Of a stretch of DNA of 64,000 bases, positions 4,545-53,449 are shown one piece after another (the stretch's first letter is position 1; the number at the start of each line of letters is the position of its first letter). The position numbers were made by a program, and so were the translations under genes. The stretch covers positions 384,001 through 448,000 of the forward strand of contig CAUVWX020000001.1 of NCBI GenBank assembly GCA_963555815.3, in the 5' to 3' direction. The DNA comes from a bacterium (GTDB lineage Bacteria > UBA8248 > JACPRG01 > G963555815). Under the pieces are notes generated by a model. That model ran no database searches and had not been told where the DNA came from. It saw only the letters and a list, made by a program, of their open reading frames with translations.

Positions 4545-5450
4545 TTGAAGGCAAGTCGGGGATTTTCAGGAGGGAAAGCCCTCCTCCTGCTCATCGTTGG
4601 GGTGACGGCGTGGGCGGGGAGCGGGGTCTGGCGGACGGTTCAGTCGGGCCATGAGCTTTGCTCTCAACCCACGGCCGATCTCCGCCCGCGCCGGATTGTC
4701 AGTCTCGCCCTGGTCACGGACGAGATCCTCGTCCACCTGGTCTCGAAGGATCGGATCGCGGCACTCCACCCTATTTCGGCCGATCCCACCTTCTCCAACA
4801 TCGCCAACCAGGTGGCCAAGATTCCAAAGATCCAGCCTGACACCGAGGTCATCCTCCGCCTACGGCCGGATCTGGTTTTAGCGGCCTCCTTCAACGGCCC
4901 CCACCTTCTGGGAAACCTCCGGCGCCTGGGCTGTCAGGTGGTCGTCATGTCTCGTTTTGATTCCTTTGAGAGCATCCGCGAAAACGTGCTCCTGATAGCC
5001 CGTGCGGTGGGGGAGGAGGCCCGGGGACACGCTCTCCTGAAGGAGATGGACGAAAAACTCGAGACCATCGCACCCCTGGGAGCAAGAGGGGATCCTCCCC
5101 CACAAGTCCTCTTCATCGGCCCCTCGGGGTTTACCGCCGGACGGGGGACCACCGTGAGCGAGGTCATCCGTCTGGCGGGCGGGCATAACGTCGCCGGGGG
5201 GATCCTGAAAGGGATCGGGCGCCTTTCTCCTGAGGTCCTGTTGAAGCTCAAGCCCGACGTCCTCCTTCGAACTTCCTATGCCCCTCTGGACCCTGCCACA
5301 AAGTGGCTCTTCTCATTGCAGGCGCAGATGGGAGGAGGAGACCCCCGAGAGGTGGTTATTGATGCAAAGCGTCTCTTGTCCGTCTCTCCCTATCTTGCTT
5401 CGGCCGTTGAGGAGCTTGGGGTGGCCCTGAAAAAAGAGGAAATGAGATGA
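4545..5450 (+). CDS. btuF: Cobalamin ABC transporter substrate-binding protein
   Basis: RIVSL..TDEIL, EVILRLRPDLVL, TAGRGT; riboswitch context. Confidence 0.85.
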   Translation: MKASRGFSGGKALLLLIVGVTAWAGSGVWRTVQSGHELCSQPTADLRPRRIVSLALVTDEILVHLVSKDRIAALHPISADPTFSNIANQVAKIPKIQPDTEVILRLRPDLVLAASFNGPHLLGNLRRLGCQVVVMSRFDSFESIRENVLLIARAVGEEARGHALLKEMDEKLETIAPLGARGDPPPQVLFIGPSGFTAGRGTTVSEVIRLAGGHNVAGGILKGIGRLSPEVLLKLKPDVLLRTSYAPLDPATKWLFSLQAQMGGGDPREVVIDAKRLLSVSPYLASAVEELGVALKKEEMR

Positions 5451-6475
5451 AGAGACTGAGGCCCTCCTGGGTCCTTTCCCTCCTCGCCCTGGCATTTTTG
5501 GGCGCCGTCCTGCTTGGGTTCTCCATTGGCTCGGTCCACATCGGCCTTGGGACTACCTTCAAGGTGCTCCTGAAGACCCTGGGGTTTCCCTTCGAGACGG
5601 CCCCCGAGGACGAGGTCATTTTGCTCCTGCTGCGTCTTCCCCGCGTGGCGAAGGCAGCCCTCGTGGGAGGGGGTCTCGCCCTTTCTGGGGTCCTGATGCA
5701 GGCCGTCTTTCGAAACCCCCTGGCCGACCCAGCCCTTCTCGGCGTCTCCAGCGGGGGGGCCCTGGCTGCCGTGATCGCCCTAAGCCTGGGGGCCGCCTTT
5801 GCGGGGGCCTGGACCGTCCCCCTGGTGGCCTTTGTCGGGGCGGTGGCCGCCTCGGCAGCGGTCCTGGCCATAGGGGGGATCCGACGCAAGGCTCATCTCC
5901 TCACCCTACTCCTCGGTGGGCTTGCGGTGAATGCCATGGCCGCGGCGCTAATCTCCCTTATCCTCCTTCGCTCAGCCACATCTGACGAAGTCCGCACACT
6001 CCTCTTCTGGCTCATGGGAAGCGTGGAGTCCCAGGGATGGACCGAGGTGACGGTCCTCTTTTTCCTCATCCTTGCCGGTGGTATCCCAGCCTTCCTCAGC
6101 AGCAGGGCCTTGAATATCCTCCTCCTGGACGACGCCGAGGCCCAAAGCCTGGGCCTTGCCGTACGAAAATTCCGCCTCTGGATGCTCGTGATCAACGCCC
6201 TGGTGGCCGGTGCCGCGGTGGCCGTGAGCGGCGTCATCGGATTCATCGGCCTGATGGTCCCCCATATGGGACGGCGTCTCACCGGACCTGACCACCGCCT
6301 CCTCCTCCCAGTCAGCATCCTGGGGGGGGCGATCCTCCTCATCGGCGCTGATCTCATTTCCCGAAGCGTCGTTGGACCGGTGGAGATCCGCGTAGGCATC
6401 GTCATGGCCCTTCTCGGGGCTCCGGTGTTCCTCATCCTTCTCCTCAGCCGGAAGGGGACGAGGGAGCTCTTGTGA
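5447..6475 (+). CDS. btuC: Cobalamin ABC transporter permease (FecCD family)
   Basis: LRLPR, QAVFRNPLADPALLGVSSG, GVIGFIGLMVPH. Confidence 0.9.
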   Translation: MKRLRPSWVLSLLALAFLGAVLLGFSIGSVHIGLGTTFKVLLKTLGFPFETAPEDEVILLLLRLPRVAKAALVGGGLALSGVLMQAVFRNPLADPALLGVSSGGALAAVIALSLGAAFAGAWTVPLVAFVGAVAASAAVLAIGGIRRKAHLLTLLLGGLAVNAMAAALISLILLRSATSDEVRTLLFWLMGSVESQGWTEVTVLFFLILAGGIPAFLSSRALNILLLDDAEAQSLGLAVRKFRLWMLVINALVAGAAVAVSGVIGFIGLMVPHMGRRLTGPDHRLLLPVSILGGAILLIGADLISRSVVGPVEIRVGIVMALLGAPVFLILLLSRKGTRELL

Positions 6476-7287
6476 TGACTCAGGAAGGTCTCCACATCGA
6501 AGGGGTGAGCGCCACACTGGGTGGGAAGACCATCCTGAACGAGATCAGTTTCGATGTGCGCCCCGGAGAGATGGTCGGGGTCCTCGGGCCGAACGGCGCG
6601 GGGAAATCTTCCCTCCTTCACGTCCTGGCCGGCCTCCTTTCGCCTGAAGGTGGCCAAGTTCGACTCGACGGCATGGACCTTCAAAACCTTTCGGTCCGAC
6701 AGCGGGGGCGTCTTGTGGCCCTGGTCCCTCAACAGCCCGCCGTCGCCTTCGGGTTTCCTTGCCATCAGGTGGTCTTAATGGGGCGATATCCCCACCTGGG
6801 ATGGCTTGAACAGGAGAGCGCAACGGACCAAGAGATCACCCTTGAATCCATGGCAATGACCGAGTGTGCGAACCTTTCAGACCGACCCATCACCCAAGTG
6901 TCAGGTGGAGAACGCCGGCGCGTCTTTCTCGCCCGCGCCCTTGCCCAGCGCCCCCGCCTCCTTCTCCTGGATGAGCCGACGGCCGATCAGGACCTTCGCC
7001 ATCAGGTCCTGCTCCTCGAGCGCCTGAGCTCCTGGGTGGGCCAAAAGGCTTTTGGGGTCGCGACCTTTCACGACGTGAACCTGGCCGCTCGGTTCTCCGG
7101 GCGCCTTCTCCTTCTCTCACAAGGGGAGGCCGTTCGCTTTGGCCCCCCGGCTGAGGTCCTGACGCCCGCCAATATCGAGTCGGTCTACGGGATTTCCGTC
7201 TCTATCGTCGGCGGTCCCCCTCCTCAGCCCCACGCCATCATCCCCCTGCTACCCAGGGGGAGCCACCAAATGGATAAACCTTCATGA
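6472..7287 (+). CDS. btuD: Cobalamin ABC transporter ATP-binding protein
   Basis: GPNGAGKS, VSGGE, LLLDEPT. Confidence 0.9.
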   Translation: MMTQEGLHIEGVSATLGGKTILNEISFDVRPGEMVGVLGPNGAGKSSLLHVLAGLLSPEGGQVRLDGMDLQNLSVRQRGRLVALVPQQPAVAFGFPCHQVVLMGRYPHLGWLEQESATDQEITLESMAMTECANLSDRPITQVSGGERRRVFLARALAQRPRLLLLDEPTADQDLRHQVLLLERLSSWVGQKAFGVATFHDVNLAARFSGRLLLLSQGEAVRFGPPAEVLTPANIESVYGISVSIVGGPPPQPHAIIPLLPRGSHQMDKPS

Positions 7288-9245
7288 AACTTCCGAGAAA
7301 AGGAAAATGGATCCTGGCCCTCATGGCAGTCTCTGTCATCTCCCTGGCCCAGAGAGGAGAGTCACAGGAGACCACGTTCAGGGCGCTTGTGGTGACGGCG
7401 ACGCGAACGCCGGAGCCCCAGGAGAGACTCGGTACGCCGGTGACAATCCTCACCCAAGAGGACCTGCGCGCGGCCGGGGTGGACCTCCGCGACGCGCTTC
7501 GGACTGTACCCGGCCTCGCCGTCGTGGGACAGGGAGGCCGCAGCGCGACCACCTCTATCTTTTCGCGGGGTGGAGAATCCAACTTCAATCTGATCCTCAT
7601 TGACGGAGTGAAGGTCAACTCCGCCGGTGGCGATTTCGACTTCGGCGATCTGACGCTGGACAACATCGAGCGGATTGAAATCCTGCGCGGCCCGCAAAGT
7701 GCCCTGTACGGTTCCGAGGCCGTGGCCTCGGTTATTCAGATCATCACAAAAAAAGGGCAAGGCGCCCCAACGGCAGACCTTGACTTCCAGGGCGGTAGTT
7801 TTGCAACGCTTGAAGAGCGGGCCAGCTTCCAATTTGGGAGAGATGATTTCGGTTTTTCCGTCGGCGTCAGCCGGATAGACACCGACGGCCACCTGGCCGT
7901 GAACAATGAATTCCGAAACACCATCGTATCTTCGAGAGCCGATTACTCGATGGGGAACTGGCTCCAGACGCAATTGTCTCTGCGCTATTCTGACTCCAGA
8001 AACCATTTCCCCACCGGAAGCGCGGGAGACCGCTTCGACACGCCTGATCCCAACCAGTTCTTGGATCGTAAACGGCTGGTGCTGAGCCCCCGGATCGAGG
8101 CCCAGGCTTTTCCCTGGTGGAACCACGTTCTCCAGCTCGGCTATTCTCACGAAAATCGGTTTTTCGACGACCCGGCGGATGCCGGTGTGGACTTCTTCGG
8201 AGCCTTCCAATCCGACACCGATGAAGACAGGATTTCGGCCGACTATCTCTGGCACTTCGGACCCTGGGCGGCCATGGAGCTGAACGCTCGGCCGACCTTC
8301 GGTTTCGCGGCGGAAGAGGAATCCATCGACCGAACCTCCATCAGCGCCGGCACGCAAACCATCCTGGATGTGTCCCGAACCAACTACGCCTTCTTCACCC
8401 AACTTCAGCTTTCCTTCCAAGACCGGCTGTTCTTCACCCCAGGCTTCCGGTTCGACGACAACGGCAACTTCGGCACTGCGGTCAGCCCTAAGTTTCCCCT
8501 GGCATACCTGATCCCGACGTGGGGGACCAAGCTGCGGGGCTCCTATGCTGAGGGAATCAAGGCACCCACCTTCATTGAGGTCTTCGGCATAAGCACCCTG
8601 ATAGGGAATCGAAACCTGGGTCCCGAAGAAGCAAGAAGCTGGGAGATTGGATTCGACCAGGACCTGTGGAAAAACCGGGTCCACTTCGGCTTCACGTATT
8701 TTCACAACCGCTTCAAGAACCTTATCGCCTTTGTCTCCGGTCCGGGGCCGAATTTCCTCAACATCCAGGAGGCAGAAACCAAAGGGGCGGAGATCACCCT
8801 TTCCGCTTCCCCCGGCTTCGGCTTCACCCTCCGCGGGAGCTACACCCTGACCGATACCGAGGTGGTGGACAATGGGGGTGTGGGGGGGCTATCTTTCATC
8901 GAAGGGCAGGAACTCCTTAGGCGTGCGAAACACAGGGGATCCTTCCAGGCTGGATATCAAGGAAAGCACCTTCAAGGAATGCTCACCCTTCTGGTGGTCG
9001 GCGACGCGAGCGATCTGAACTTCTCGCAATTTCCCTCTCGTCGGATCACGTTAGGCGGGTACGAGCATGTCGACCTCTACTTGTCTTATCCACTTCCATG
9101 GAAGTTACCTGGAGTCCGAACCGCAAGGCTGCAGGTACAGGTGAAAAACCTATTGGATGAGAATTACGAGGAGGTGTTCGGATTCAGCACGCCTGGGGTG
9201 TCCGCTATAGGAGGGCTCAAGTTGGAGTTCGGAGGGAGTTCCTAA
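7284..9245 (+). CDS. btuB: TonB-dependent cobalamin receptor
   Basis: Signal peptide, TonB box LVVTATRT, plug IERIEILRGPQSALYGS, late NLLDENY. Confidence 0.88.
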   Translation: MKLPRKGKWILALMAVSVISLAQRGESQETTFRALVVTATRTPEPQERLGTPVTILTQEDLRAAGVDLRDALRTVPGLAVVGQGGRSATTSIFSRGGESNFNLILIDGVKVNSAGGDFDFGDLTLDNIERIEILRGPQSALYGSEAVASVIQIITKKGQGAPTADLDFQGGSFATLEERASFQFGRDDFGFSVGVSRIDTDGHLAVNNEFRNTIVSSRADYSMGNWLQTQLSLRYSDSRNHFPTGSAGDRFDTPDPNQFLDRKRLVLSPRIEAQAFPWWNHVLQLGYSHENRFFDDPADAGVDFFGAFQSDTDEDRISADYLWHFGPWAAMELNARPTFGFAAEEESIDRTSISAGTQTILDVSRTNYAFFTQLQLSFQDRLFFTPGFRFDDNGNFGTAVSPKFPLAYLIPTWGTKLRGSYAEGIKAPTFIEVFGISTLIGNRNLGPEEARSWEIGFDQDLWKNRVHFGFTYFHNRFKNLIAFVSGPGPNFLNIQEAETKGAEITLSASPGFGFTLRGSYTLTDTEVVDNGGVGGLSFIEGQELLRRAKHRGSFQAGYQGKHLQGMLTLLVVGDASDLNFSQFPSRRITLGGYEHVDLYLSYPLPWKLPGVRTARLQVQVKNLLDENYEEVFGFSTPGVSAIGGLKLEFGGSS

Positions 9246-9259
9246 GGAGTACCGACACC

Positions 9260-10261
9260 GTGAGAGACACACCCCAGCCCGCCGCCCCTGCCAAGAAAGG
9301 CCCGAGCCACGGGAGGACAATGGGCCCGCCGGGAGGTTTCTTGCGACGGGCACTCGCCCTCTCGATTTTCATCCACCTCGCAGGGGCCGTCGGGGTCATG
9401 TCACTTCTACTCTATCAGGGAAATCCTGACGAAAAGGCCCTGGGACGCGGTCCCATCCGAGTCTCGCCCTATCCCGCAGAGCCTACGCCAAACCTCCAGA
9501 AAAGTGAGGAAGCGGATCTCCTAAAAACTTCAGAGGGTGCTGGTCAAAACGAACAGGCTGTTCTCCATCGGTCTTCCCTTGCCGCCCCTCAAGAGGAACC
9601 TGAAGAGACCGACAGCCCGGCTTCAAGACCCACGCTACGGTTCGAAAGGACGTCGGAAGACTCCTTCTTCCCTGAGGAGACACTTCCCTCCCTTGTCTTA
9701 TCGGCGATGGAGGAAAACACCGAAGATATCCAGCCCTCATTCCCAACAGAGGCGCCCCGTCCCCTAACCCGGCAGATTCGGAAGCGAGAAACAGCTGTCG
9801 TCTCTTTGCCACCTCCCCACCTTCCCGATGTGGAAGACACTGAGGGCGCTCCGGTTGAGGTTCCGGAAGAGGAAGCGGGGGACCATCCGCCAGAACTTCA
9901 GCCCGCCGCTGAAACGGCACTGGGACCTGAGGAGGAATCCAATCCACTCAGAGATGGGGTGGCACGAGAAGAGAAGGCGCGGGGCACTCCTGTTCGGGTC
10001 TTCGCCGACCATCGGGTTCTTCCCCGTTATCCACTCATCGCCCGGCGCCAGGGGCTTCAAGGGACCACCCTTCTTCGGATTCAGATCAAACCCGACGGGC
10101 GGGTGGCAAAAATTCTCCTCCTTCAATCCTCGGGCCATTCCTCTTTGGATGAATCGGCCACCGAGGCGGTCCACCTCTGGAGATTTGGGTTCGAAGGGGA
10201 CCCTCCCCCTTCGGGAATGTGGGCAATCCTTCCGGTCCGCTTCGAGCTCAGGGGGCAGTAG
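9260..10261 (+). CDS. tonB: Energy transducer TonB
   Basis: TM with SIFIH (SxxxH), long Pro/Glu linker, C-terminal YPLIARRQGLQG..SSGHSSLD..PVRFEL. Confidence 0.88.
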   Translation: MRDTPQPAAPAKKGPSHGRTMGPPGGFLRRALALSIFIHLAGAVGVMSLLLYQGNPDEKALGRGPIRVSPYPAEPTPNLQKSEEADLLKTSEGAGQNEQAVLHRSSLAAPQEEPEETDSPASRPTLRFERTSEDSFFPEETLPSLVLSAMEENTEDIQPSFPTEAPRPLTRQIRKRETAVVSLPPPHLPDVEDTEGAPVEVPEEEAGDHPPELQPAAETALGPEEESNPLRDGVAREEKARGTPVRVFADHRVLPRYPLIARRQGLQGTTLLRIQIKPDGRVAKILLLQSSGHSSLDESATEAVHLWRFGFEGDPPPSGMWAILPVRFELRGQ

Positions 10262-14186: not shown

Positions 14187-14801
14187 CTACTTCAGGACGA
14201 GGAGCTGGATAACCCCACAGGCGATGCGGGCCCCGGCATTTCCGCTGGGGTTGCTCTTTTCGTCATCAGGGCCGGCGTGAATGACCAAGGCCGTGCCGTC
14301 GGGATGAAAGGGATCGAAGAGCGAATGCTTCCCTGAGCCGAGGGTGACAAACGGGGCGTCCGACTCCACAACGGCGGTGCCGTCGTCCCCTACCGTGATA
14401 TTCGGCAGATCCCCGGCATGCGGTCCCTCTGGGTTTTTCAACCCGTGCCCCTTCTCATGGGGGTTGAAGTGACCGCCGGCCGATTTGAAGTCCGGTGGAT
14501 CGCACTGACCGATCGAGTGGATGTGGAAGGCGTGGGTCCCCGGCGGGAGATTAGAAATTTGGAGGGCGATCTTGGCGCCTTGTCGAGTCGCCGCCGTGAT
14601 GGTCGCAGTTCCCACCGTCTCTCCCTCTGCGTTAATCAACTCCACCCTCCCCTCGATGGCCTTTGGGGTTGTACCCATGGCTATCTGCGTCTCTGTCCCT
14701 GAATTGCGCAGCTCGGCCTTCGCTGTGTCGGCGCCCGCCTGACCGTAGACGACAGTGCTGAACACGAGCAACCCCCCGGCGACAAGCGTTGTGTGCTTCA
14801 T
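14187..14801 (-). CDS. sodC: Periplasmic Cu/Zn superoxide dismutase
   Basis: Signal peptide, [32 protein letters not shown]. Confidence 0.93.
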
Positions 14802-25677: not shown

Positions 25678-27063
25678 ATGGGAAAGGGGATGCCTTTAAC
25701 CTGGCTTCAAAAGCTCACCCATAGTTTCAAAAGCGTCGTCCCTTTCCCAGGCTTCCTTTTGCTCCCCTTCTTCGTGGTCGCCTGCGAGGGATTTCAGGAT
25801 GCCAGACTGACCACGACCCCGCCGCCCCGGGCTTTCATCAAGGTTTTTATCTCCCAGGATCTGGAACTCGACAAAAGTCCTCCCCCCGCAGCCGACGCCG
25901 TCGACGAGGCCGCCGAAACCGTCTCGCCCAATCCTGATCCCGATGCGGACTCCTCTCACCTTCCCCTCCTGACAGCGGCCCGGACCCAAGCAAACGCCCT
26001 TCAACTCTTCTTCAGCCAACTCAACGACCCCAGTCTCATCAAGGGCCTCTCCATTCAAGCGGAGGTGAGAAACCCCCTGGGGGAGGAACAGGCCCGGTCT
26101 AAAAGGGCCACCCGGAAGAAGGCACCGGAGATCAAGTCTGGCCCCCCTAACAAACCAAAACCCCCGGTGAAACCCAGTGTTGCCACCCTCTATTTCGCCA
26201 GCGCCGAGGCCCGAGACCGAGAGGCCCTCCTGAAGGCCCTCGGACCGAACGAGATAGGCGCGCTCACCTGCGGCCCTCCCGCCGGGGAGAGAAGAATCCT
26301 CTCCCTCTTCGGCTTTCTCTCGGCAGCGGCAAAGCGGACAGCCATATTCCTGAAGGAGCGGGGAGATGAGCAAGTTGTCCTGCTGGTCGACCCGACACCC
26401 TACGGAGAAAGGGGAAGGATAGTTTTTGGGCAGGCGGCCAGAGAGTCAGGCCTTCAGATCCTGTCCGAGGGTGTTCTCGAGGAGGACGCCCTTAAAATTC
26501 CTCTCCCTGACAGGAGGGATGTGCCTCTTGTGATCTGGACAGAAGATATCAGGGCGATCTCCATCCTGCAGTCCCTGCGACAGATGGGCTACGAAGATTT
26601 CGTCTTCGGCCCCGCCGTGCCTCATCCGGATTTGACCTTTGACACCACCCACCCCTGGACCCCCAACCTCTTCCTGAAAGAGGCGGAGGGAGTCCTGGCG
26701 GTAGCCCACAAACTCCTCGTCGCGGACACCCTGCCTAAAACCGACCCTCACGGACCTCGGTTGAGAAAGTTCCGGGAAGAATACGAGATAGCGTTCGAGT
26801 CCCCCCCCTCCTTGCTGGGCGCTTGCACCTACGATGCCCTCGTCTTTGCCGCCGAGAACCTGCGGGCCCTGGCTCACCCCCTGGACCTGGCGACGCTGCC
26901 CCCCCGCACTCTTCAGCGCCTGTTGAGCGCCCCGTCCTGGTCAGGGGTATCGGGCATCTATGTCTTTCAAACGGCAGCCTCAGGGGACCGGGTAGGCCTT
27001 CTCGACCTGGACGCCTTTGTGATGGTGAAGGCAGAGGGGGGTCGCTGGCAGCTTGTCCAGTGA
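25678..27063 (+). CDS. Lipoprotein with a type I periplasmic-binding (LivJ-like) fold
   Basis: VVAC lipobox, PYGERG, YDAL, GVSGIYVF; divergent. Confidence 0.55.
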   Translation: MGKGMPLTWLQKLTHSFKSVVPFPGFLLLPFFVVACEGFQDARLTTTPPPRAFIKVFISQDLELDKSPPPAADAVDEAAETVSPNPDPDADSSHLPLLTAARTQANALQLFFSQLNDPSLIKGLSIQAEVRNPLGEEQARSKRATRKKAPEIKSGPPNKPKPPVKPSVATLYFASAEARDREALLKALGPNEIGALTCGPPAGERRILSLFGFLSAAAKRTAIFLKERGDEQVVLLVDPTPYGERGRIVFGQAARESGLQILSEGVLEEDALKIPLPDRRDVPLVIWTEDIRAISILQSLRQMGYEDFVFGPAVPHPDLTFDTTHPWTPNLFLKEAEGVLAVAHKLLVADTLPKTDPHGPRLRKFREEYEIAFESPPSLLGACTYDALVFAAENLRALAHPLDLATLPPRTLQRLLSAPSWSGVSGIYVFQTAASGDRVGLLDLDAFVMVKAEGGRWQLVQ

Positions 27064-27114
27064 GGCAATAGAGGGCCTTGTCGGCCGCGAAAAATCTGCT
27101 AAAATAGCTTCATC

Positions 27115-27462
27115 ATGCGCCAAAAGTTGAAAAGGCTTTATGCCGCGTGGCGAGTCGCCACTGCGGGCAGTCTGGCGGCGGGCTTTTTGCTCACCTACCT
27201 GGTCGCCCTTCCTCCGCACCTGGTCCACCACATCTTCGAAGCGGAGCCGAGCGACCCCTTCAAGGTAGACCTGAGCCAATCGGGCTGCTCTCACCTCGCC
27301 CAGAGCCAGACGACCACACCACATCAGACAGATGCGCCGAGCCTGATCCCTCCCATCCCCGCCGAAATCCTTCACGCTCTCTTTTCTGGAACGTCTCTTC
27401 CATCGCCCAAATTCAGGATCAACCATCCTCGCGCCCCACCCTGCTTCACACTCTCCACGTAG
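27115..27462 (+). CDS. DUF2946/CruR-like leader protein with C-terminal RAPP motif
   Basis: N-terminal TM, HLVHH, CSH, Pro-rich linker, HPRAPP near the C-terminus; upstream of copper genes. Confidence 0.7.
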   Translation: MRQKLKRLYAAWRVATAGSLAAGFLLTYLVALPPHLVHHIFEAEPSDPFKVDLSQSGCSHLAQSQTTTPHQTDAPSLIPPIPAEILHALFSGTSLPSPKFRINHPRAPPCFTLST

Positions 27463-27567
27463 CTTCGTCAATTCTCATAATTTACTGAACTGAGCGGACT
27501 CTTTGGGTGTCCGGGGGCATGCACCTTGTCCATCCGGGGGAGAGTGTCCGCTCAGAGGAGAACATAT

Positions 27568-28521
27568 ATGAAAATTCGGATGACGGGTTTTATCTGTCTT
27601 GTGATCCTAGCGATCGGAGCTGGGCCCGCCTTAGGCCACGGGCTGGTGGGAAAGCGGTTCTTTCCGTCCACGCTCGCGATTGAGGACCCTTTTGCTTCCG
27701 ACGAGCTGACGCTCCCGGCGTTCATCATCATCAAAGAGCCCCCGGAGGGGGATGAGCCAGCCACGGTCGAGACAGAGATAGAGGCGGAGTACTCAAAACG
27801 CATCACGCCGCATTTGGCGGTCTTCTTCGAGGGCGAGTGGGCCCATCTGAGCCCTGACAGCGGATCCGACGAGACTGGGTTCGGTAATCCCGAGGTGGGC
27901 CTCAAGTATCAGCTCTTCGAGAACGACGTCCACGAAACCGTTATCTCCCTGGCGCTGGGTTGGGCGATTGGCGGCGTGGGGAGCAAGGACGTTGAGGCCG
28001 TTTCCTTCAGCGAGCTCAACCCGAATCTCACTTTCGGAAAAGGGTTCGGCGACCTGCCCAATTCTCTTTCCTACCTCAAGCCTTTCGCTCTTACCGGGGT
28101 CTTCGGGGCAAAGATTCCGACCCGCAGCAGCTCAAAAAAAGTCGAGACCCACGAGAGCGAGGTGGAGATTGAGATCGAGCAGCACCCGAACAAACTTCAG
28201 TGGGGGTTCGTGGTCGAGTACAGCATCCCGTACCTTCAATCGTTCGTGAAGGACATCGGCCTTCCCTTCCCTTTCAACCGGATGATCCCCGTCGTCGAGC
28301 TGGCTCTTGAAACCCCGCTCGACCGCGGATCGGCCGGAGACACGACGGGGGCCATCAATCCCGGGGTCATCTGGACCAAAAAATCATTCCAGTTCGCGTT
28401 GGAGGCCGTTATTCCCATTAACGATCGGACAGGCGAAAACATAGGAGTGCGGGGAATGTTCCACCTCTTCCTGGACGACCTGTTCCCTAAAAGTCTAGGT
28501 CGGCCGATCTTCGGCGGATGA
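27568..28521 (+). CDS. Putative outer-membrane beta-barrel, copper-associated
   Basis: GAGGAG RBS; signal ALG|HGLVGKRFFP gives a mature N-terminal His; amphipathic strands; overlaps copC. Confidence 0.6.
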   Translation: MKIRMTGFICLVILAIGAGPALGHGLVGKRFFPSTLAIEDPFASDELTLPAFIIIKEPPEGDEPATVETEIEAEYSKRITPHLAVFFEGEWAHLSPDSGSDETGFGNPEVGLKYQLFENDVHETVISLALGWAIGGVGSKDVEAVSFSELNPNLTFGKGFGDLPNSLSYLKPFALTGVFGAKIPTRSSSKKVETHESEVEIEIEQHPNKLQWGFVVEYSIPYLQSFVKDIGLPFPFNRMIPVVELALETPLDRGSAGDTTGAINPGVIWTKKSFQFALEAVIPINDRTGENIGVRGMFHLFLDDLFPKSLGRPIFGG

Positions 28522-28889
28522 CTATGAACCGTCTCAGCGCCATCGGGCTTGCCTTGGCCGTCCTGCTCTTGGGGGCAACTGGGTTAGAGGCCCATACGTT
28601 CCTTGAGCGCGCCGAGCCCCGGGTCGGGAACACAGTAAAAACTTCACCGACCGAGGTCAGGCTGTGGTTCTCCGATCACCTCGATCCTGCCTACAGTAAT
28701 GTCCAAGTGGTCAACGAGGCCGGCGAGCAGGTGGACAAGGGAGACGGTCAGGTGGACTCCTCCAACCCTGTGCTGCTCCGAGTTTCTCTCCCCTCACTTC
28801 CATCCGGGGCCTATCAGGTGATTTGGAGCGTGCTCTCGGTAGATGGTCATGCCGTTCGGGAAGACTTCACCTTCCGAGTGACCCCTTGA
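28518..28889 (+). CDS. copC: Periplasmic copper chaperone CopC
   Basis: LEA|HTFL (His1), P..VRLWFS, YQVIWSVLSVDGH, FTFRV. Confidence 0.92.
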   Translation: MTMNRLSAIGLALAVLLLGATGLEAHTFLERAEPRVGNTVKTSPTEVRLWFSDHLDPAYSNVQVVNEAGEQVDKGDGQVDSSNPVLLRVSLPSLPSGAYQVIWSVLSVDGHAVREDFTFRVTP

Positions 28890-28905
28890 GAAGGAAGCCT
28901 TTATA

Positions 28906-28995
28906 TCACCCGTTCACGAGGCGGACGAGGGGGGTGTCGGGCAGGAAATCAATGACGTTCAGGGATCCATAACCCTGGTTAATGCGAAAGACGTA
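28906..28995 (-). repeat. Direct-repeat copy of the cobC-like gene 3' end (partner at 30355-30444)
   Basis: 28906-28964 differs from 30355-30413 at one base; translates YVFRINQGYGSLNVIDFLPDTPLVRLVNG*. Confidence 0.92.
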
Positions 28996-29086
28996 GAATT
29001 CGTCAACATCCATTTTCCCAAATCTGGAAAAGCATCTTTTCTCGAAAGGAGTTGCTTCAAGAACTTACGGAGAGACTATTTCTATT

Positions 29087-30313
29087 ATGGCTCGTGAAAT
29101 GGAAGCGCTCGAGAGAAACATTCGGCTCTATCCTTGGTACGCTAGCGCTTTTAACACGTTCTTCTGGATGCCGGTTTTCTTTTTGTATTTCAACGAGCGG
29201 TTTCCCCTCGAAAGCGTGTTGCGGCTCGAAGTCATCTACTATATAGCGGTCGTCTTCTTTGAGGTTCCATCCGGTTACTTTTCTGATTCATTCGGGCGGC
29301 GTATCACGCTGATAGCTTCGTCGGCAGCACTCGTAACAGCTTATTCATTATTCTTTTTTGGAGGCAGATTTGTGCTCTTTGCCGCGGCCCAGATATGTCT
29401 GGCCGTTGGTATCTCTTTCAATTCAGGCACCGATACTTCCTTCCATTTTGATTCATTAGCCGCCCTTGGCAGGGAAAAAGAATTCGCCGACCGAGAGGCA
29501 GGTATAGCAAGAAACATCTTTCTGGCAGGGGCCGGAGCGGCAATTGTCGGTGGTTCCGTTGCAATGCTTCAGCTCCGCTTGGCCTACGGTCTCTCACTCC
29601 CGGCAGCCCTCACAGCCTTTTTCATCGCCCTTTACGCCACTGAACCCACTACACATGAGCGAAAGAATGTGCTTGGTTTCGGGTTCTTCGGGCAACTCAA
29701 AGAATGCCTTCAGTCCCTCCGAACTCCCTCTTTAAGATGGCTGTTCGGCTATGCCGTGATCATGACTGTGCTTAACCACGTGCCCTACGAGTTCTATCAA
29801 GCCTATCTAGGTCTGCTCACTCTCGATCTGAACCTATGGACAAAGAGTACGCCCGTTGTAACTGGACTTCACATGGGTGTCGCAATGCTGTTGGGATCAT
29901 GGTTCGCTTCACAAAGCATTCATTTTCGAGACTGGCTGGGCAATGTTCCCTTGCTCCTTGTAAGCACTTTGGTTCAGACAGCTATCATCACGTTGATGGC
30001 ATTCCTACTCCACCCCATTCTTGCCGTTTTGCTTCTTTTCCGAACTCTTCCTCGCGCCCTGATGACCGCCCCACTCAACGCCGCCGTTGCGCCCCAGGTG
30101 CCCCAGGCACAGCGGGCAACGTATCTCTCCCTCCAAAGCCTAGCTGGAAGGCTCTCATTCGCTGGCGTTCTCTTTATGCTCTCCTTAGTCGCCGGATCTG
30201 ACAAGCCGACCGATTGGCCGTCACTGTCTCTAATACTACGGCTCTGCTCCGGAATCAGCCTGGTGGGTTTGCTCGCTCTGGCGGTGACGGCATCCATCCG
30301 ACGGGCAACATAA
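29087..30313 (+). CDS. MFS transporter
   Basis: About 12 TMs, EVPSGYFSDSFGRR motif A, SGTD, RATYLS; visibly lower GC than its flanks. Confidence 0.9.
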   Translation: MAREMEALERNIRLYPWYASAFNTFFWMPVFFLYFNERFPLESVLRLEVIYYIAVVFFEVPSGYFSDSFGRRITLIASSAALVTAYSLFFFGGRFVLFAAAQICLAVGISFNSGTDTSFHFDSLAALGREKEFADREAGIARNIFLAGAGAAIVGGSVAMLQLRLAYGLSLPAALTAFFIALYATEPTTHERKNVLGFGFFGQLKECLQSLRTPSLRWLFGYAVIMTVLNHVPYEFYQAYLGLLTLDLNLWTKSTPVVTGLHMGVAMLLGSWFASQSIHFRDWLGNVPLLLVSTLVQTAIITLMAFLLHPILAVLLLFRTLPRALMTAPLNAAVAPQVPQAQRATYLSLQSLAGRLSFAGVLFMLSLVAGSDKPTDWPSLSLILRLCSGISLVGLLALAVTASIRRAT

Positions 30314-48838: not shown

Positions 48839-51800
48839 ATGAAACCTGTCCGCAAGATTCTGCCGTTACTGGGCGTCGCTGTCTGGTTGGGCATTATTCT
48901 GGCCGTTTCGATAGGCATCATCGGGTCAAAGAAGCAACTCGACGAAGCCCTCGCCGCTAGGGGGCTCACTCTAGCGCAGCCGCTCGAGAGGAAACTCGAG
49001 CGGATCATTGCCGAGGAAACAGGATACGAGATCAGCAGTCACGAGAGGTCAGAGGGGCCGAGCCTGATGGCCAGCTTTGATGAGCACGAGAGTGTCCTCT
49101 TTTCGCCCGTGTCCTGCCCCGCCAACGCCCCTGTCAAAACCTATGATCTTGCGTCCATCAACGTCACCATTATCCTGAACCGCTGGGGCGATCGGGATCC
49201 CCTGGGCTACATGTACGCCGTCCGCGATCATCTCCCGGCCATCCGGGCCCAAGAGACCACGGGGGAGGATGGGAACTTCGGACTGGGCCTCGGGGTTGGG
49301 GGAGATGCCATTCAGCCCCTCACGATCCGCGGCAACGTGGGTGACTGTGTCCGAATTTCCCTCATCAACGAACTGGACGAGCCGGCGAGCTTCCATGTCC
49401 ATGGTGCCGATTTGATCCTGGCGGCCACGGGCGAACCGGCCCTTTCTACGAACTCCGACTCAATGGCGATGCCAGGCGAGAAGATTATTTACGAGTGGTA
49501 CATCGATCCTGAGCACTACACCGAGAACACCCACTACGTTCACTCCCACGGTGCCAAGGCCCGGTTCCAGGCGGGCCATGGGCTTTTTGGCGCGTTCATC
49601 GTCGAGCCGGCCGGGTCAGAGTACCTTGACAACCAGACGGGCCAGCCCCTTTGCAACCGGAACGGGAATGGCGACGCTCTGGAGTGTGGGAACTCGTGGG
49701 ACGCGATGATCTCGCCGGGCGACGGCAGTTCTGATTTCCGCGAGTTCACGATGTTCTACCACGAGATTGGCAACGCGCAGTTCGCTGCTGCAGACAAGGA
49801 GGGGGTCCCGCTCCCGAGCATCGATCCGGTCCTGAACTCCTACAAGCCCAGCGGCCGCGCCATCAACTACCGGAGCGAGTCCTTTTTCCGGCGGATGGGC
49901 GAGATCGACGAGCAGGTGCCCTTCTATAAGGAATGGAAGCACGACGAAGCTGAGGCCTACTCTTCATATGTTTTTGGCGATCCGGCCATGCCCGTCCCCC
50001 AGTCCTACGTAGGGGACCCCGTCAAGTACCGCCTCCTGCACGGCGGCAGCGAGACCTTCCACGTCCCCCACCTTCACGGGGGCGGTATCCAGTGGCAGCG
50101 CCAGTCGGACGTCGGCAAGGAGGACGGTGCCTCGGACTTTGTGCCCATCGACGAAGGCCTCCGGAAGCATTTCGAGAACACGATGGCCAGCTCTGGCAAC
50201 GACTCGCAGACCATTGGCCCTTCTGAGAGCTACGAGCTCGAGATAGGCTGCGGGAGCGGTGGCTGCCAGCAGACCGTCGGCGACTTCTTGTTCCACTGCC
50301 ACGTTGCCTCCCATTACATCTCCGGCATGTGGCACTTTTGGCGGGTCTACAATACCCTTCAAGACGACGTAGGCAAGACGGACGAGCTGGCTGTGGTCGC
50401 CGAGCTCCCCGACCGCCAGGGCGGCATGGAGCACGCGGTTACCTCAACGGAGCTTATCGGCCAGACGGTGACCTTCTCCGGTCGCGATATGACCGTCAAC
50501 GAGTCGCTCCTTCACACCCTGGTCCAGTTGCAGTTGCCCCCCCAGGGCATCACGACCCACGAGCAGGACGCGTCGGTGATGGACTGGGCCGTGGACGAAA
50601 CTCTTTATCTCAACGAGCCGGAGACCAGGTACAGCTGGCCGAACTTCACCTCGCCGAATCCTGGGGAGCGGTTCGCCTTGAAGTTCAACCCGGCCACCGC
50701 CAAGCTGGCATTCCCATTCCTTCGGCCTCACCTTGGCAAGCGGCCCCCCTTCGCCCCGCATCACGGGCCCGCTCCCTTCCTGGAGCCCTTTAATCACCCA
50801 GAAACCATCCCAGAGGTTGTCGCTGGCGATACCCCGAAACTGGCTGGCGACACAGCGGAACTAGTGGAGCTCGTCTCTGACGACAGCTCAACTGACGACA
50901 GCGCATTCGAGGTTGCTCAGACTAGAAACAGAGAGGTTCTCCACCCTCTTCTCACCGGGCACTCTGAGCCAGCTCATCCGGGGTTGAATGGAGAGTACAG
51001 TCTCTGTCCGCAAGGCGCGCCACTCCGCTTTTACAATATCCACGCTATCCAGACCCCAATCCCCGTGAATGCCGTCACGTTGGATTCGGACGGGATGATC
51101 ATGGTCCTCAAGGAGAACGAAGAACGGGCCAGAAACAACCCGGATTTCAAAGTGCCGATCGCCATTCGAGCCAACCAGGGCGACTGCGTGGACATCTTCT
51201 TCACCAACGAGCTCGACGGGACGGATAAGGACCACAAAGGACTCCCGAACTTGATGAAGACAAACATCCACATCCACTTCGTTCAGTTCGACACCCAGGC
51301 GTCTGACGGCGTTATCACGGGTCAAAGCTATGAGCAGGCGCCGCGGCCCTTCACAGCACCGGGAATGAGCGCCAAGATCCAGGAGGTGGCGACGCGGGGG
51401 TCCGTCCGATTGAGCGTCAACGATGCCTCCTTATTCCACCCGGGATCGACCGTAGCAGTTGGCATCGACGAGCAGACCGATATCCTCGAGACAGCGGTTA
51501 TTGAAGCCATCTCGGGGAATGAGCTCATCTTCAGACGCCCGCTCCGCAACGACCACGTACCCGGCGAGCTGGTGAGCAACGAGTTCGTCCGCTACCGGTG
51601 GTACGTGGCACGTCAGAACGGCGCCATCTATTTCCACGACCATGTGGATGCCCTGAACCGGTGGGGCCACGGGCTCTTCGGGGCCCTCATCGCGGAGCCC
51701 ACCGGCTCGACATATCACGATCCCAAGACCGGCGAGGAGATCCTCAGCGGGCCCATTGCGGACATCCGCCTGGACCCCAACCGAGGGGTGCTCCCGGGCC

Positions 51801-53449
51801 TGGAAGGGAGCTTCCGCGAATACGTACTATTCATGAACGACCGCAACCAGATGACCGGGAGCACGTTCAACCTTCGAGCCGAGCCGCTGCGCGCCGACAC
51901 CAAGCGCGGCCAGGGCCCAACCCACCTGGCGCTCAGCAGCGTCATGCACGGCGACCCGGCGACCCCGGTGCTCCGGTCCTACGTGGGCGACCCCATCCTG
52001 TTCAGGTTGCTCACTTCGGCGACCGAGGAGATTCACCCGTTCCACATCACCGGACACCATTTCCGGCAAGAACGTTTTCAGGGGAACTCGCCCCCGCTGA
52101 CCGTCTTCGGGGTGGGGATTTCGGAGCGGTTCAACGCCTACGTCGAGGCGGCCGGAGGCGCGGCCCGAAAGGCCGGCGACTACCTCTATTACAACGGTTC
52201 AGAGCGCCACTTCCGGGAGGGGAGCTGGGGGATCCTCAGGGTGCACGACACCCTGCAGGCTAACCTGCAGCCGCTGCCGGGTCGGGAGCCGCCATCCGGA
52301 CAGGGCTTCCCCCTCCTCACCTTTACAGGAGAGGCGCCACCGAGGGCTACGGACCCGGGCAACCCGTGTGTCGCCGGAGCCCCCCACCAGACCTTTAACG
52401 TATCCGCCATCGATCAGAGGCTCGTGTTCAACGCCGACGCGGGGTTGGGGATACCCACGGGCCGCATCTACGTACTCGATCAGGACCTAGAGGCCGTTCA
52501 AAGCGGCGCTAGGCGGCCTGAGCCCCTCGTGATCAGGGCCAACGCCGGCGACTGCATCACCGTGAGCTTCACCAACCGTTCCAGCCAGCCGGCTTCCTTC
52601 CACGTGGACAGCCCCACCTTCGATCCGCAAGGGTCCCTGGGGATCACCCTGGGCTACAACCCCGATCAGGTGGCCCTCCCCGGTGAGCACATCAACTACA
52701 CCTTCTACGCCGAAGACGAGCTTGGGGTTGTGCTCGCCCGAGACTTCGGCAACCTCTTCCGAAACGCTCGGGAAGGGCTCTACGGGGCGCTCGTCGTGGA
52801 GCCCGAGGGCTCGACCTATCACGATCCCTACACTGGCGAACCCCTCGAGAGCGGGGTCGCGGCGGTGATCCAGAATCCGAACACGCCCGACTTCCGGGAG
52901 TTTGTCACCGTGTTTCAGGACAACGACCCGGACATCGGCCTGTTCCTCATGCCCTACGACCAGGACGTGAACAAGCTGGTGGGGATCAACTACCGAGCCG
53001 AGCCTCTCACCCTGCGCCTCGCCCTGATGGGGATGCTCCTCGACGCAGACCCGCTGAGGCCTGAAGACTTCAAGATGGCCTCATCGCTCTACGACAGCAG
53101 CGTGTTCGGAGAGCCGGCGACCAACGTCTTTGAGACGTTTGGTGGTGATCCCGTGCGCTTCCGAGTGGTCAGCGGATACAGCGAACAGTCCCAAGTGTTC
53201 TCTGTGGAGGGGCACCAGTGGCAGCTCACGCCGCAGATCAAGGGCTCCGACGTCGTCAGTTCGCGTTATCTTCCGCCGACCGGCGTACTCAACGCTAACC
53301 TGATGGCCACGGGTGGCCCGCAGGGCCGTCCGGGCGACTACAAGTGGGGCAACCACCGACTTCCCTTTGAGAAGGCGGGCCAGTGGGGGCTCATGCGAGT
53401 TTATGGGCCGGGGACCGACACCCGGCTGAGACCTTTATCGGACCGATGA
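48839..53449 (+). CDS. Large six-domain multicopper oxidase (MnxG-like), membrane anchored
   Basis: Cupredoxin repeats (PLTIRGNVGDC, IAIRANQGDC, PLVIRANAGDC); HVPHLH plus HCHVASHYISGM (T1 site); HIH and FHDH; extra HVH/HSH. Confidence 0.88.
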   Translation: MKPVRKILPLLGVAVWLGIILAVSIGIIGSKKQLDEALAARGLTLAQPLERKLERIIAEETGYEISSHERSEGPSLMASFDEHESVLFSPVSCPANAPVKTYDLASINVTIILNRWGDRDPLGYMYAVRDHLPAIRAQETTGEDGNFGLGLGVGGDAIQPLTIRGNVGDCVRISLINELDEPASFHVHGADLILAATGEPALSTNSDSMAMPGEKIIYEWYIDPEHYTENTHYVHSHGAKARFQAGHGLFGAFIVEPAGSEYLDNQTGQPLCNRNGNGDALECGNSWDAMISPGDGSSDFREFTMFYHEIGNAQFAAADKEGVPLPSIDPVLNSYKPSGRAINYRSESFFRRMGEIDEQVPFYKEWKHDEAEAYSSYVFGDPAMPVPQSYVGDPVKYRLLHGGSETFHVPHLHGGGIQWQRQSDVGKEDGASDFVPIDEGLRKHFENTMASSGNDSQTIGPSESYELEIGCGSGGCQQTVGDFLFHCHVASHYISGMWHFWRVYNTLQDDVGKTDELAVVAELPDRQGGMEHAVTSTELIGQTVTFSGRDMTVNESLLHTLVQLQLPPQGITTHEQDASVMDWAVDETLYLNEPETRYSWPNFTSPNPGERFALKFNPATAKLAFPFLRPHLGKRPPFAPHHGPAPFLEPFNHPETIPEVVAGDTPKLAGDTAELVELVSDDSSTDDSAFEVAQTRNREVLHPLLTGHSEPAHPGLNGEYSLCPQGAPLRFYNIHAIQTPIPVNAVTLDSDGMIMVLKENEERARNNPDFKVPIAIRANQGDCVDIFFTNELDGTDKDHKGLPNLMKTNIHIHFVQFDTQASDGVITGQSYEQAPRPFTAPGMSAKIQEVATRGSVRLSVNDASLFHPGSTVAVGIDEQTDILETAVIEAISGNELIFRRPLRNDHVPGELVSNEFVRYRWYVARQNGAIYFHDHVDALNRWGHGLFGALIAEPTGSTYHDPKTGEEILSGPIADIRLDPNRGVLPGLEGSFREYVLFMNDRNQMTGSTFNLRAEPLRADTKRGQGPTHLALSSVMHGDPATPVLRSYVGDPILFRLLTSATEEIHPFHITGHHFRQERFQGNSPPLTVFGVGISERFNAYVEAAGGAARKAGDYLYYNGSERHFREGSWGILRVHDTLQANLQPLPGREPPSGQGFPLLTFTGEAPPRATDPGNPCVAGAPHQTFNVSAIDQRLVFNADAGLGIPTGRIYVLDQDLEAVQSGARRPEPLVIRANAGDCITVSFTNRSSQPASFHVDSPTFDPQGSLGITLGYNPDQVALPGEHINYTFYAEDELGVVLARDFGNLFRNAREGLYGALVVEPEGSTYHDPYTGEPLESGVAAVIQNPNTPDFREFVTVFQDNDPDIGLFLMPYDQDVNKLVGINYRAEPLTLRLALMGMLLDADPLRPEDFKMASSLYDSSVFGEPATNVFETFGGDPVRFRVVSGYSEQSQVFSVEGHQWQLTPQIKGSDVVSSRYLPPTGVLNANLMATGGPQGRPGDYKWGNHRLPFEKAGQWGLMRVYGPGTDTRLRPLSDR

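Follow-up and report, generated by a model that had tools for sequence, protein, structure and literature searches.

A near-leaderless RAPP leader ORF with an HxxHH motif and one cysteine at the CruR register, ahead of an outer-membrane barrel gene and copC: a candidate copper-responsive arrest peptide

Three genes follow one another on the forward strand of the window (i.e. the whole stretch of 64,000 nucleotides that was analysed): a leader ORF of 115 aa (27115..27462), a gene for an outer-membrane protein of 317 aa (27568..28521), separated from the leader by an intergenic gap of 105 nt, and copC (28518..28889), the start of which overlaps the stop of the preceding gene (ATGA). CopC (PF04234, 78.4 bits) carries the His1...Asp-x-His site for Cu(II), a His-Asp-His arrangement as described for YobA (PMC8689200), and these three residues are invariant in 24 aligned sequences, which were themselves picked by these motifs. 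Here, as in nearly all loci with this type of outer-membrane protein, copC is the next gene. An earlier note on this DNA had stated that CopD, a TonB receptor and a regulator are absent; this is true of the locus, but the absence of CopD is local, as CopD follows CopC in 25 of the 51 downstream ORFs scanned in relatives. In this 96%-complete genome no CopD was found above the cut-off. A small membrane protein that matches CopD only weakly (L040:1264-1782, 23.7 bits, cut-off 32.1) is a possible stand-in for the missing CopD.

The outer-membrane protein is predicted (AF2, pLDDT 90.6, and structure comparison) to form a 12-stranded barrel with an N-terminal plug and the FapF/COG4313 fold. The closest structures are FapF (5o65; Z 21.9, rmsd 3.2 over 241 aligned) and, from Pseudomonas putida, the COG4313 channel (4rl8; Z 20.6, rmsd 3.2 over 232 aligned); PcoB, a copper barrel, is more distant (Z 12.2). 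With FapF and 4rl8 it shares the 12 strands and the plug, but identity is 9-11%, and the window barrel adds a His1, further conserved histidines and a copper gene context. Searches of Pfam/NCBIfam with the barrel gave no match at E<=1, and its profile A1, run against the sequences of the PDB, gave nothing significant. The predicted mature protein begins with His1 (H24, codon 27637-27639), which bears out the earlier description of a His1-bearing outer-membrane protein and then CopC behind the leader; a mature His1 is predicted in 72 of 74 barrel pattern matches, of which the remaining two are mis-picks, and H276 and H99 are kept in 63/65 and 55/65, respectively. At E<=0.001 the barrel has 3094 homologous proteins. 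It occurs in 82/251 genomes of the phylum to which a Rokubacteria record belongs, which we take to be Methylomirabilota, and in 3/51 of the window's own phylum, and 10 plasmid records carry it as well. In a quick tree of 72 rows, from which 9 of the 81 loci analysed below were excluded for want of a full match, the window barrel groups among Methylomirabilota rows (support 81-86); a horizontal origin, i.e. transfer of the window barrel, is suggested. A complex of barrel and CopC was predicted with a score of 0.46 (best control 0.00), with runs agreeing in at least 92% of contacts and a partner pLDDT of at least 87, on a scale where the calibration mark was reached by 116/157 solved pairs and 2/215 mismatched pairs, and where the scores up to 0.60 that reached it comprise only 18 solved pairs plus both mismatched ones; such a complex is thereby given weak support.

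Upstream of the leader lies a sigma-70-type promoter-like site (27078..27105, + strand), in which a -35-like TTGTCG beginning at 27078 is separated by 16 nt from a TG-extended -10 TAAAAT (TGCTAAAAT, 27097-27105) located 9 nt 5' of the ATG at 27115, and no purine-rich SD occurs in these 9 nt. The site scores 9/12 matches and is the sole promoter-like site within 26000-30000, where shuffles expect 1.4; taken alone, this match is at chance level. The same arrangement of -10, 9 nt and ATG is also present in L001, L002, L011 and L012. The encoded protein consists of a predicted membrane helix (residues 14-32, 27154..27210), H35-x-x-H38-H39 (HLVHH, 27217..27231) directly C-terminal to it, Cys58 (27286..27288) in the context G-C58-S-H60, a Pro-rich spacer, and the RAPP arrest motif R106-P109 (H-P-R106-A-P-P109, 27430..27441) 6 codons ahead of the stop. 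The anatomy reported in the earlier note (a 115-aa ORF with TM, HLVHH, Pro-rich spacer and HPRAPP) agrees with the sequence, except that its single cysteine has to be corrected to two, C58 and, C-terminal to RAPP, C110. The closest leader homologs retain PPHLVHH, the Cys and PRAPP, and the leader in L001, identical in length and frame, differs at 13 codons synonymously and at 17 non-synonymously. In the AF2 model a helix is followed by disorder (pTM 0.29), and ligand geometry is not readable from it. Pfam/NCBIfam searches with the leader protein gave no match. By itself the RAPP motif is weak evidence; near a stop it occurs in 6 six-frame ORFs of the genome.

Conservation of the arrangement was assessed in 81 loci: Methylomirabilota contribute 70, the plasmid records 8 (of 10) and the window's own phylum 3, after removal of 3 duplicates. 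The 70 Methylomirabilota loci are a subset of the listed matches, with partial matches mostly excluded. In 76/81 loci an ORF with R[AGS]PP ends upstream of the barrel gene at a distance of at most 450 nt, against 2/81 on the opposite strand and 1/73 downstream, counts that are not independent trials, as the genomes are mutually related. The near-leaderless RAPP ORF that the earlier note places at the head of a copper module is supported, as a conserved, CruR-like leader. The leaders end in RAPP (57), RSPP (13) or RGPP (6), and in 76/76 the motif lies within 8 codons of the stop; the loci without a leader are L005, L007, L008, L063 and the truncated L019. A pattern scan of genomes with a single barrel protein as query yielded just 2 loci.

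In CruR of Bordetella pertussis (Bp2923, DUF2946/PF11162; cruR-bfrG-bp2921), C90 and C93 lie at -49 and -46 from R139, a spacing that is needed for control (PMC9426467). Cys58 of the window leader lies 48 residues N-terminal to the RAPP arginine, i.e. in the register of the first CruR cysteine, and is followed by S-H-L, so that CxxC is absent. The same holds for most of its relatives: in 56/70 non-proteobacterial leaders the helix is followed by an HxxHH motif, and every one of these 56 has a Cys at -50..-48 from the Arg and lacks CxxC. A Cys at -50..-48 occurs in 57/70, compared with 16 Cys per 3080 spacer positions. (The alignment of these leaders, A2 with 54 rows, was picked from HxxHH leaders, and its invariant columns are partly a selection effect.) Likewise, RAPP/RGPP, HxxHH and Cys were found in 48/48 database proteins checked, and CxxC in 0/48. 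CxxC is limited to 1/70 non-proteobacterial leaders (L064) and to 2 of 77 further copies away from barrel loci (L174, L182), whereas all 6 proteobacterial leaders have it at -49/-46, 4 of these being annotated as DUF2946 before the same barrel gene. The remaining non-proteobacterial leaders are 12 of a third type and L070, which fits no type. This third type (L071-L082, e.g. L082:1062-1364; 12 genomes, same barrel) has RSPP and, in the spacer, a Cys only at -46, the second-Cys register; its helix ends in a Cys and a His, and its intergenic gap is longer.

The proposal of a His in place of CxxC therefore holds in part: HxxHH is conserved (56/70) and the second Cys is lost, but the first Cys is retained at the CruR register (56/56). 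Of the conservation expected in orthologs, that of the RAPP-like motif (76/81) and of HxxHH was found, but not that of the GCSH histidine, which sits 2 residues past the Cys in the window's subgroup, amounting to 7/70 leaders, and was rejected as the ligand replacing CxxC. A His 8 residues past the first Cys is shared by the canonical leaders and 42/56 HxxHH leaders, and is absent in the window's subgroup.

A search against DUF2946, suggested as a check, gave no match for the window leader at the PF11162 cut-off (23.7 bits), nor for anything in the whole genome, with L085 as positive control at 64.3 bits. Weak PF11162 matches (E<=1) were obtained for 9/54 leader homologs (best 0.0013), a profile-profile comparison of HxxHH leaders with the 6 canonical leaders gave a probability of 70 (E 3.9e-5) spanning C..H..RAPP, and in the Atlas the nearest clusters to homolog P0004 are unnamed (0.95-0.96), with a DUF2946 cluster at 0.94. 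The bridge leaders L174:281-610 and L182:1366-1773 combine HxxHH and CxxC and are likely intermediates; L182 comes from the window's own family and lies on a contig that differs from the barrel-gene contig of that genome. Taken together, the leader reads as a remote, single-Cys DUF2946 relative that has lost the second Cys and gained HxxHH. By analogy we infer that it may work like CruR, although two features of DUF2946/CruR membership, a score above the PF11162 cut-off and CxxC, are absent from it.

The short distance between -10 and start codon is a family trait. A TA...T hexamer 4-12 nt before an in-frame start is present in 31/56 HxxHH leaders, most commonly at 7 nt, where ~1.9 are expected (control: 11/1630 starts), which argues that the HxxHH family is largely leaderless; the box also adjoins the start in 21/74 other leader copies and in 1/6 proteobacterial leaders. 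As for topology, the helix of the window leader is flanked by 5 K/R before and 0 after it, and in 55/55 leader homologs basic residues are more numerous before the helix than after. By the positive-inside rule the basic flank stays cytoplasmic and the opposite flank outside. The helix is therefore predicted to be N-in/C-out, which would place HxxHH outside the cytoplasm. A longer N-terminus with a signal peptide, and two helices ahead of HxxHH, often with a His at the predicted mature start, is seen in many members of the leader family (L025, P0125-P0157).

Following these results, the ORF is very probably a regulatory arrest leader. That the ORF instead encodes a small copper-binding membrane protein with a function in trans, or is a chance frame, RAPP having no role in cis, is very improbable: the recurrence of RAPP near stops in the genome and the freely diverging spacer would be compatible with it, whereas the first position in operons, the fixed spacing, the constant proximity of RAPP to the stop, the disorder past the helix and the leaderless start all argue against it. 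An arrest peptide need not sense metal, however. SecM/ApdP-type RAPP peptides answer translocon pulling (PMC12992588), and since the helix is universal in the leader family, the peptide could monitor membrane insertion or just couple translation to transcription, with the His and Cys being structural and no metal switch present. This seems improbable as well, though less so, given that the Cys-to-Arg distance is fixed and equal to that of CruR, that the His are invariant and that the downstream genes are metal genes rather than sec genes.

The leader family extends well beyond the barrel loci. In a survey covering Methylomirabilota, the window's own phylum and plasmid records, the leader profile matched in 151/251 Methylomirabilota genomes and 3/51 genomes of the own phylum, and 77 copies away from barrel loci (a subset of ~200 matches, obtained with a profile that itself holds the motifs) have a RAPP-like end in 75, HxxHH in 74 and Cys in 73 cases. 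Downstream of these 77 copies lie TonB or a TonB receptor (42), a BBP2 porin (5), ZnuA-like genes (2) or unrecognised genes (13), and a recognised copper family is within the fetched DNA of 15 (CopC 11, CopD 4, SCO 3, CtaG 1, multicopper oxidase 1). CxxxM and HxM were absent from the TonB receptors checked (11 sequences, 9 of them partial). With 42/77 copies heading TonB or TonB-receptor operons, the leader is not tied to TonB-independent uptake; of what the earlier note proposed here, it is the barrel without a TonB-receptor fold that is supported. In L124 and L154, tandem leaders occur in one operon, one ahead of tonB and the other ahead of the TonB receptor, while in L127:893-1804 and L144:685-1647 an HxxHH leader precedes a ZnuA-like ABC metal transporter, so that these loci lend themselves to testing metal specificity.

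The sensed metal is probably copper. A leader for another metal or several metals (Zn, Ni, Co), its specificity shifted by the His-rich site, is decidedly unlikely, but has several points in its favour: His3-Cys is also a zinc-type ligand set, two copies head ZnuA-like ABC genes, the 42 TonB systems have three conserved His and no known cargo, and His-only CutF-like clusters precede HupE/UreJ nickel/cobalt genes (PMC9973294). The position of copC directly behind the barrel, here and at nearly all barrel loci, speaks for copper instead, as do the SCO, CtaG, CopD and multicopper oxidase genes behind other leader copies.

Elsewhere the genome encodes Rho, a heme-copper oxidase subunit, CsoR-family genes and Cu-ATPases; one CsoR-family gene adjoins a Cu-ATPase, away from the leader locus, and copper efflux would be handled there. 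These efflux genes and the many TonB systems behind other copies favour the uptake direction, and we give an even chance to the reading that the leader is a CruR-type copper sensor keeping barrel and copC on at low copper; that copper turns the operon off is, as such, somewhat favoured. Direction, metal and compartment are all drawn from gene context only. In this CruR-type scheme, the ribosome would initiate on an mRNA with hardly any leader, at its 5' end or close to it, and the helix would insert N-in, bringing HxxHH and Cys58 to the periplasmic face. Translation would stall at RAPP, with stalled or queued ribosomes covering the C-rich tract, so that transcription goes on and the barrel SD is free. 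Copper on the three His and the single Cys would fold the nascent chain and relieve the stall, whereupon the ribosome would terminate and Rho (or SD pairing) would silence barrel and CopC. The barrel, in turn, would admit copper through the outer membrane independently of TonB and deliver it to CopC. Against such a scheme stands the absence of the second Cys of the motif that is needed in CruR copper control, as do the opposite direction of control in CutF, a relative, the modest share of other copies with a recognised copper family (15/77), the two that head ZnuA-like genes, and the lack of CxxxM and HxM in the TonB receptors checked. Without a CopD above the cut-off, moreover, the inner-membrane copper step is missing for an uptake reading, and the export signal of CruR is dispensable (PMC9426467), which makes periplasmic sensing less certain.

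The RNA between leader and barrel gives limited guidance on the last steps. A C-rich, G-poor tract (27314..27479, + strand) is a possible, weakly supported Rho loading site: C minus G reaches 41 within 150 nt, matched by 0.05% of genome tiles. At fourfold sites, C amounts to 0.448 in the leader spacer versus 0.483 in the barrel gene, and the C>G skew is therefore mostly codon content; a Rho site selected at synonymous positions was rejected, as C is not enriched there and T is raised (0.13 vs 0.055). In the synonymous-position test the pyrimidine share exceeds that of the barrel gene in 39/64 loci. A hairpin (27490..27555, z -2.5) is predicted to end at the SD (AGGAG, 27556-27560), while the segment 27380-27600, folded as a whole, does not exceed shuffles in stability (z -0.03); over the family the median intergenic z is -1.17, with 11/40 below -2, and the consensus fold of the intergenic regions of 7 relatives is weak (-3.9 kcal/mol), with no clear shared structure. 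A pyrimidine run inside the C-rich tract (27376-27385) is predicted to pair with the barrel SD in naked RNA and to be freed only under queued ribosomes. One stalled footprint opened the SD in 18/55 loci and closed it in 10/55, with slight closing here (0.39 to 0.29), so that a conserved RNA switch at the SD is not supported by the 55 loci.

These features bear on the opposite direction, in which copper on His3-Cys would prolong the stall and switch on barrel and CopC, either for defence or to buffer copper in the periplasm. In Rhodobacter capsulatus, CutF (cutFOG) is co-translationally exported; it senses copper in the periplasm and opens a stem at the SD, and it resembles the window leader in its Cys ligand, Pro-rich stall tail and hairpin near the SD (PMC9973294; bioRxiv 10.1101/2025.02.05.636593); it differs by CxxxC, PPP, a cleaved signal and copper induction of a detoxifying oxidase. 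The conserved N-in helix, the intergenic hairpin reaching the SD, the genome's lack of CopD above the cut-off, and the description of CopC/CopD as copper-sequestering too (PMC6769254) would fit this direction. It is nevertheless unlikely, as most other leader copies head TonB import systems, the hairpin begins ~50 nt past the stall codon, outside one footprint and not opened by it, and the motif is RAPP as in CruR; neither a CutF-type CxxxC nor a C-terminal PPP occurs in the window leader.

The likeness to CruR comprises the place as first gene of a metal-uptake operon, an export signal, the Cys at -49, the C-terminal RAPP, a long intergenic gap, the C>G tract and Rho. The window leader differs in the lost second Cys, the added HxxHH, the uncleaved helix and a score under the Pfam cut-off; it is near-leaderless, whereas CruR transcription starts 45 nt upstream of its start codon (PMC9426467), and it precedes a 12-stranded barrel and CopC rather than a TonB receptor. 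Arrest has been shown in vitro for CruR, and RAPP arrests in varied contexts, but it is not sufficient alone (PMC12992588). Gene order is as here in Burkholderiaceae and Methylocystis plasmid operons (DUF2946 - hypothetical protein - copC(-copD)), with a homologous barrel of 35-43% identity, but their leaders have canonical CxxC, a -10 next to the start in 1/6, and usually copD. Streptomyces lividans SLIV_16130 and SLIV_18480 likewise precede metal genes and combine RAPP/RGPP with conserved His/Cys; as far as their description in PMC12992588 allows comparison, they are actinobacterial with other motifs and topology. One HxxHH family member, MBI1893022.1, is included without name in the source list of that paper, and the HxxHH family may be among the CutF-like proteins of PMC9973294, which fall into 29 clusters whose sites consist of Cys, of His or of both. 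In the supplement searched of PMC9426467, neither the leader motifs nor the phylum names gave a match. A literature search, in which few subscription papers were covered, named neither the HxxHH leader family nor its leaderless start nor the barrel. The control is thus of the CruR/CutF type and not a new kind of regulation; what was not met in the literature searched is HxxHH with one Cys at a fixed register, the leaderless start and a His1 barrel as target.

The leader family bears on a question shared by CruR and CutF: how a stalled ribosome is freed or kept in place once its nascent chain binds metal. It provides a natural series at one register (CxxC; HxxHH with CxxC; HxxHH with one Cys; RSPP with the second Cys only), which makes ligand chemistry, compartment and direction comparable by swaps in one reporter. 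Since the family escapes Pfam, such regulation would be under-counted in uncultured phyla, and the barrel family, which is without a family name, offers candidate channels through which copper could enter independently of TonB, ahead of CopC/CopD. The widest reading would be that phylum-wide leaderless, membrane-anchored arrest peptides read periplasmic metal by His3-Cys at the translocon exit and form the main metal-uptake switch in Methylomirabilota, here gating His1-plugged 12-stranded channels that pass copper to CopC without TonB; we regard this as conceivable but doubtful.

Some further genes deserve mention. The window also encodes a Cu/Zn superoxide dismutase homolog (14187-14801, - strand) and a 1536-aa protein with multicopper-oxidase-like stretches (48839-53449, + strand), both possible copper clients. 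At 4545-10261, genes for an ABC binding protein with its permease and ATPase, a TonB receptor and TonB resemble, by sequence, an uptake operon of the B12 type; of these, the receptor family was tested. In a Rokubacteria locus (L002:1185-7673), a CopD-cytochrome c-thioredoxin fusion, CusF, leader-barrel-CopC, a beta-propeller and SodC occur together. Behind copC in the window (28890-30313), G+C falls to ~0.49-0.51 over an MFS gene, versus 0.60 for the genome, and L001 is arranged likewise.
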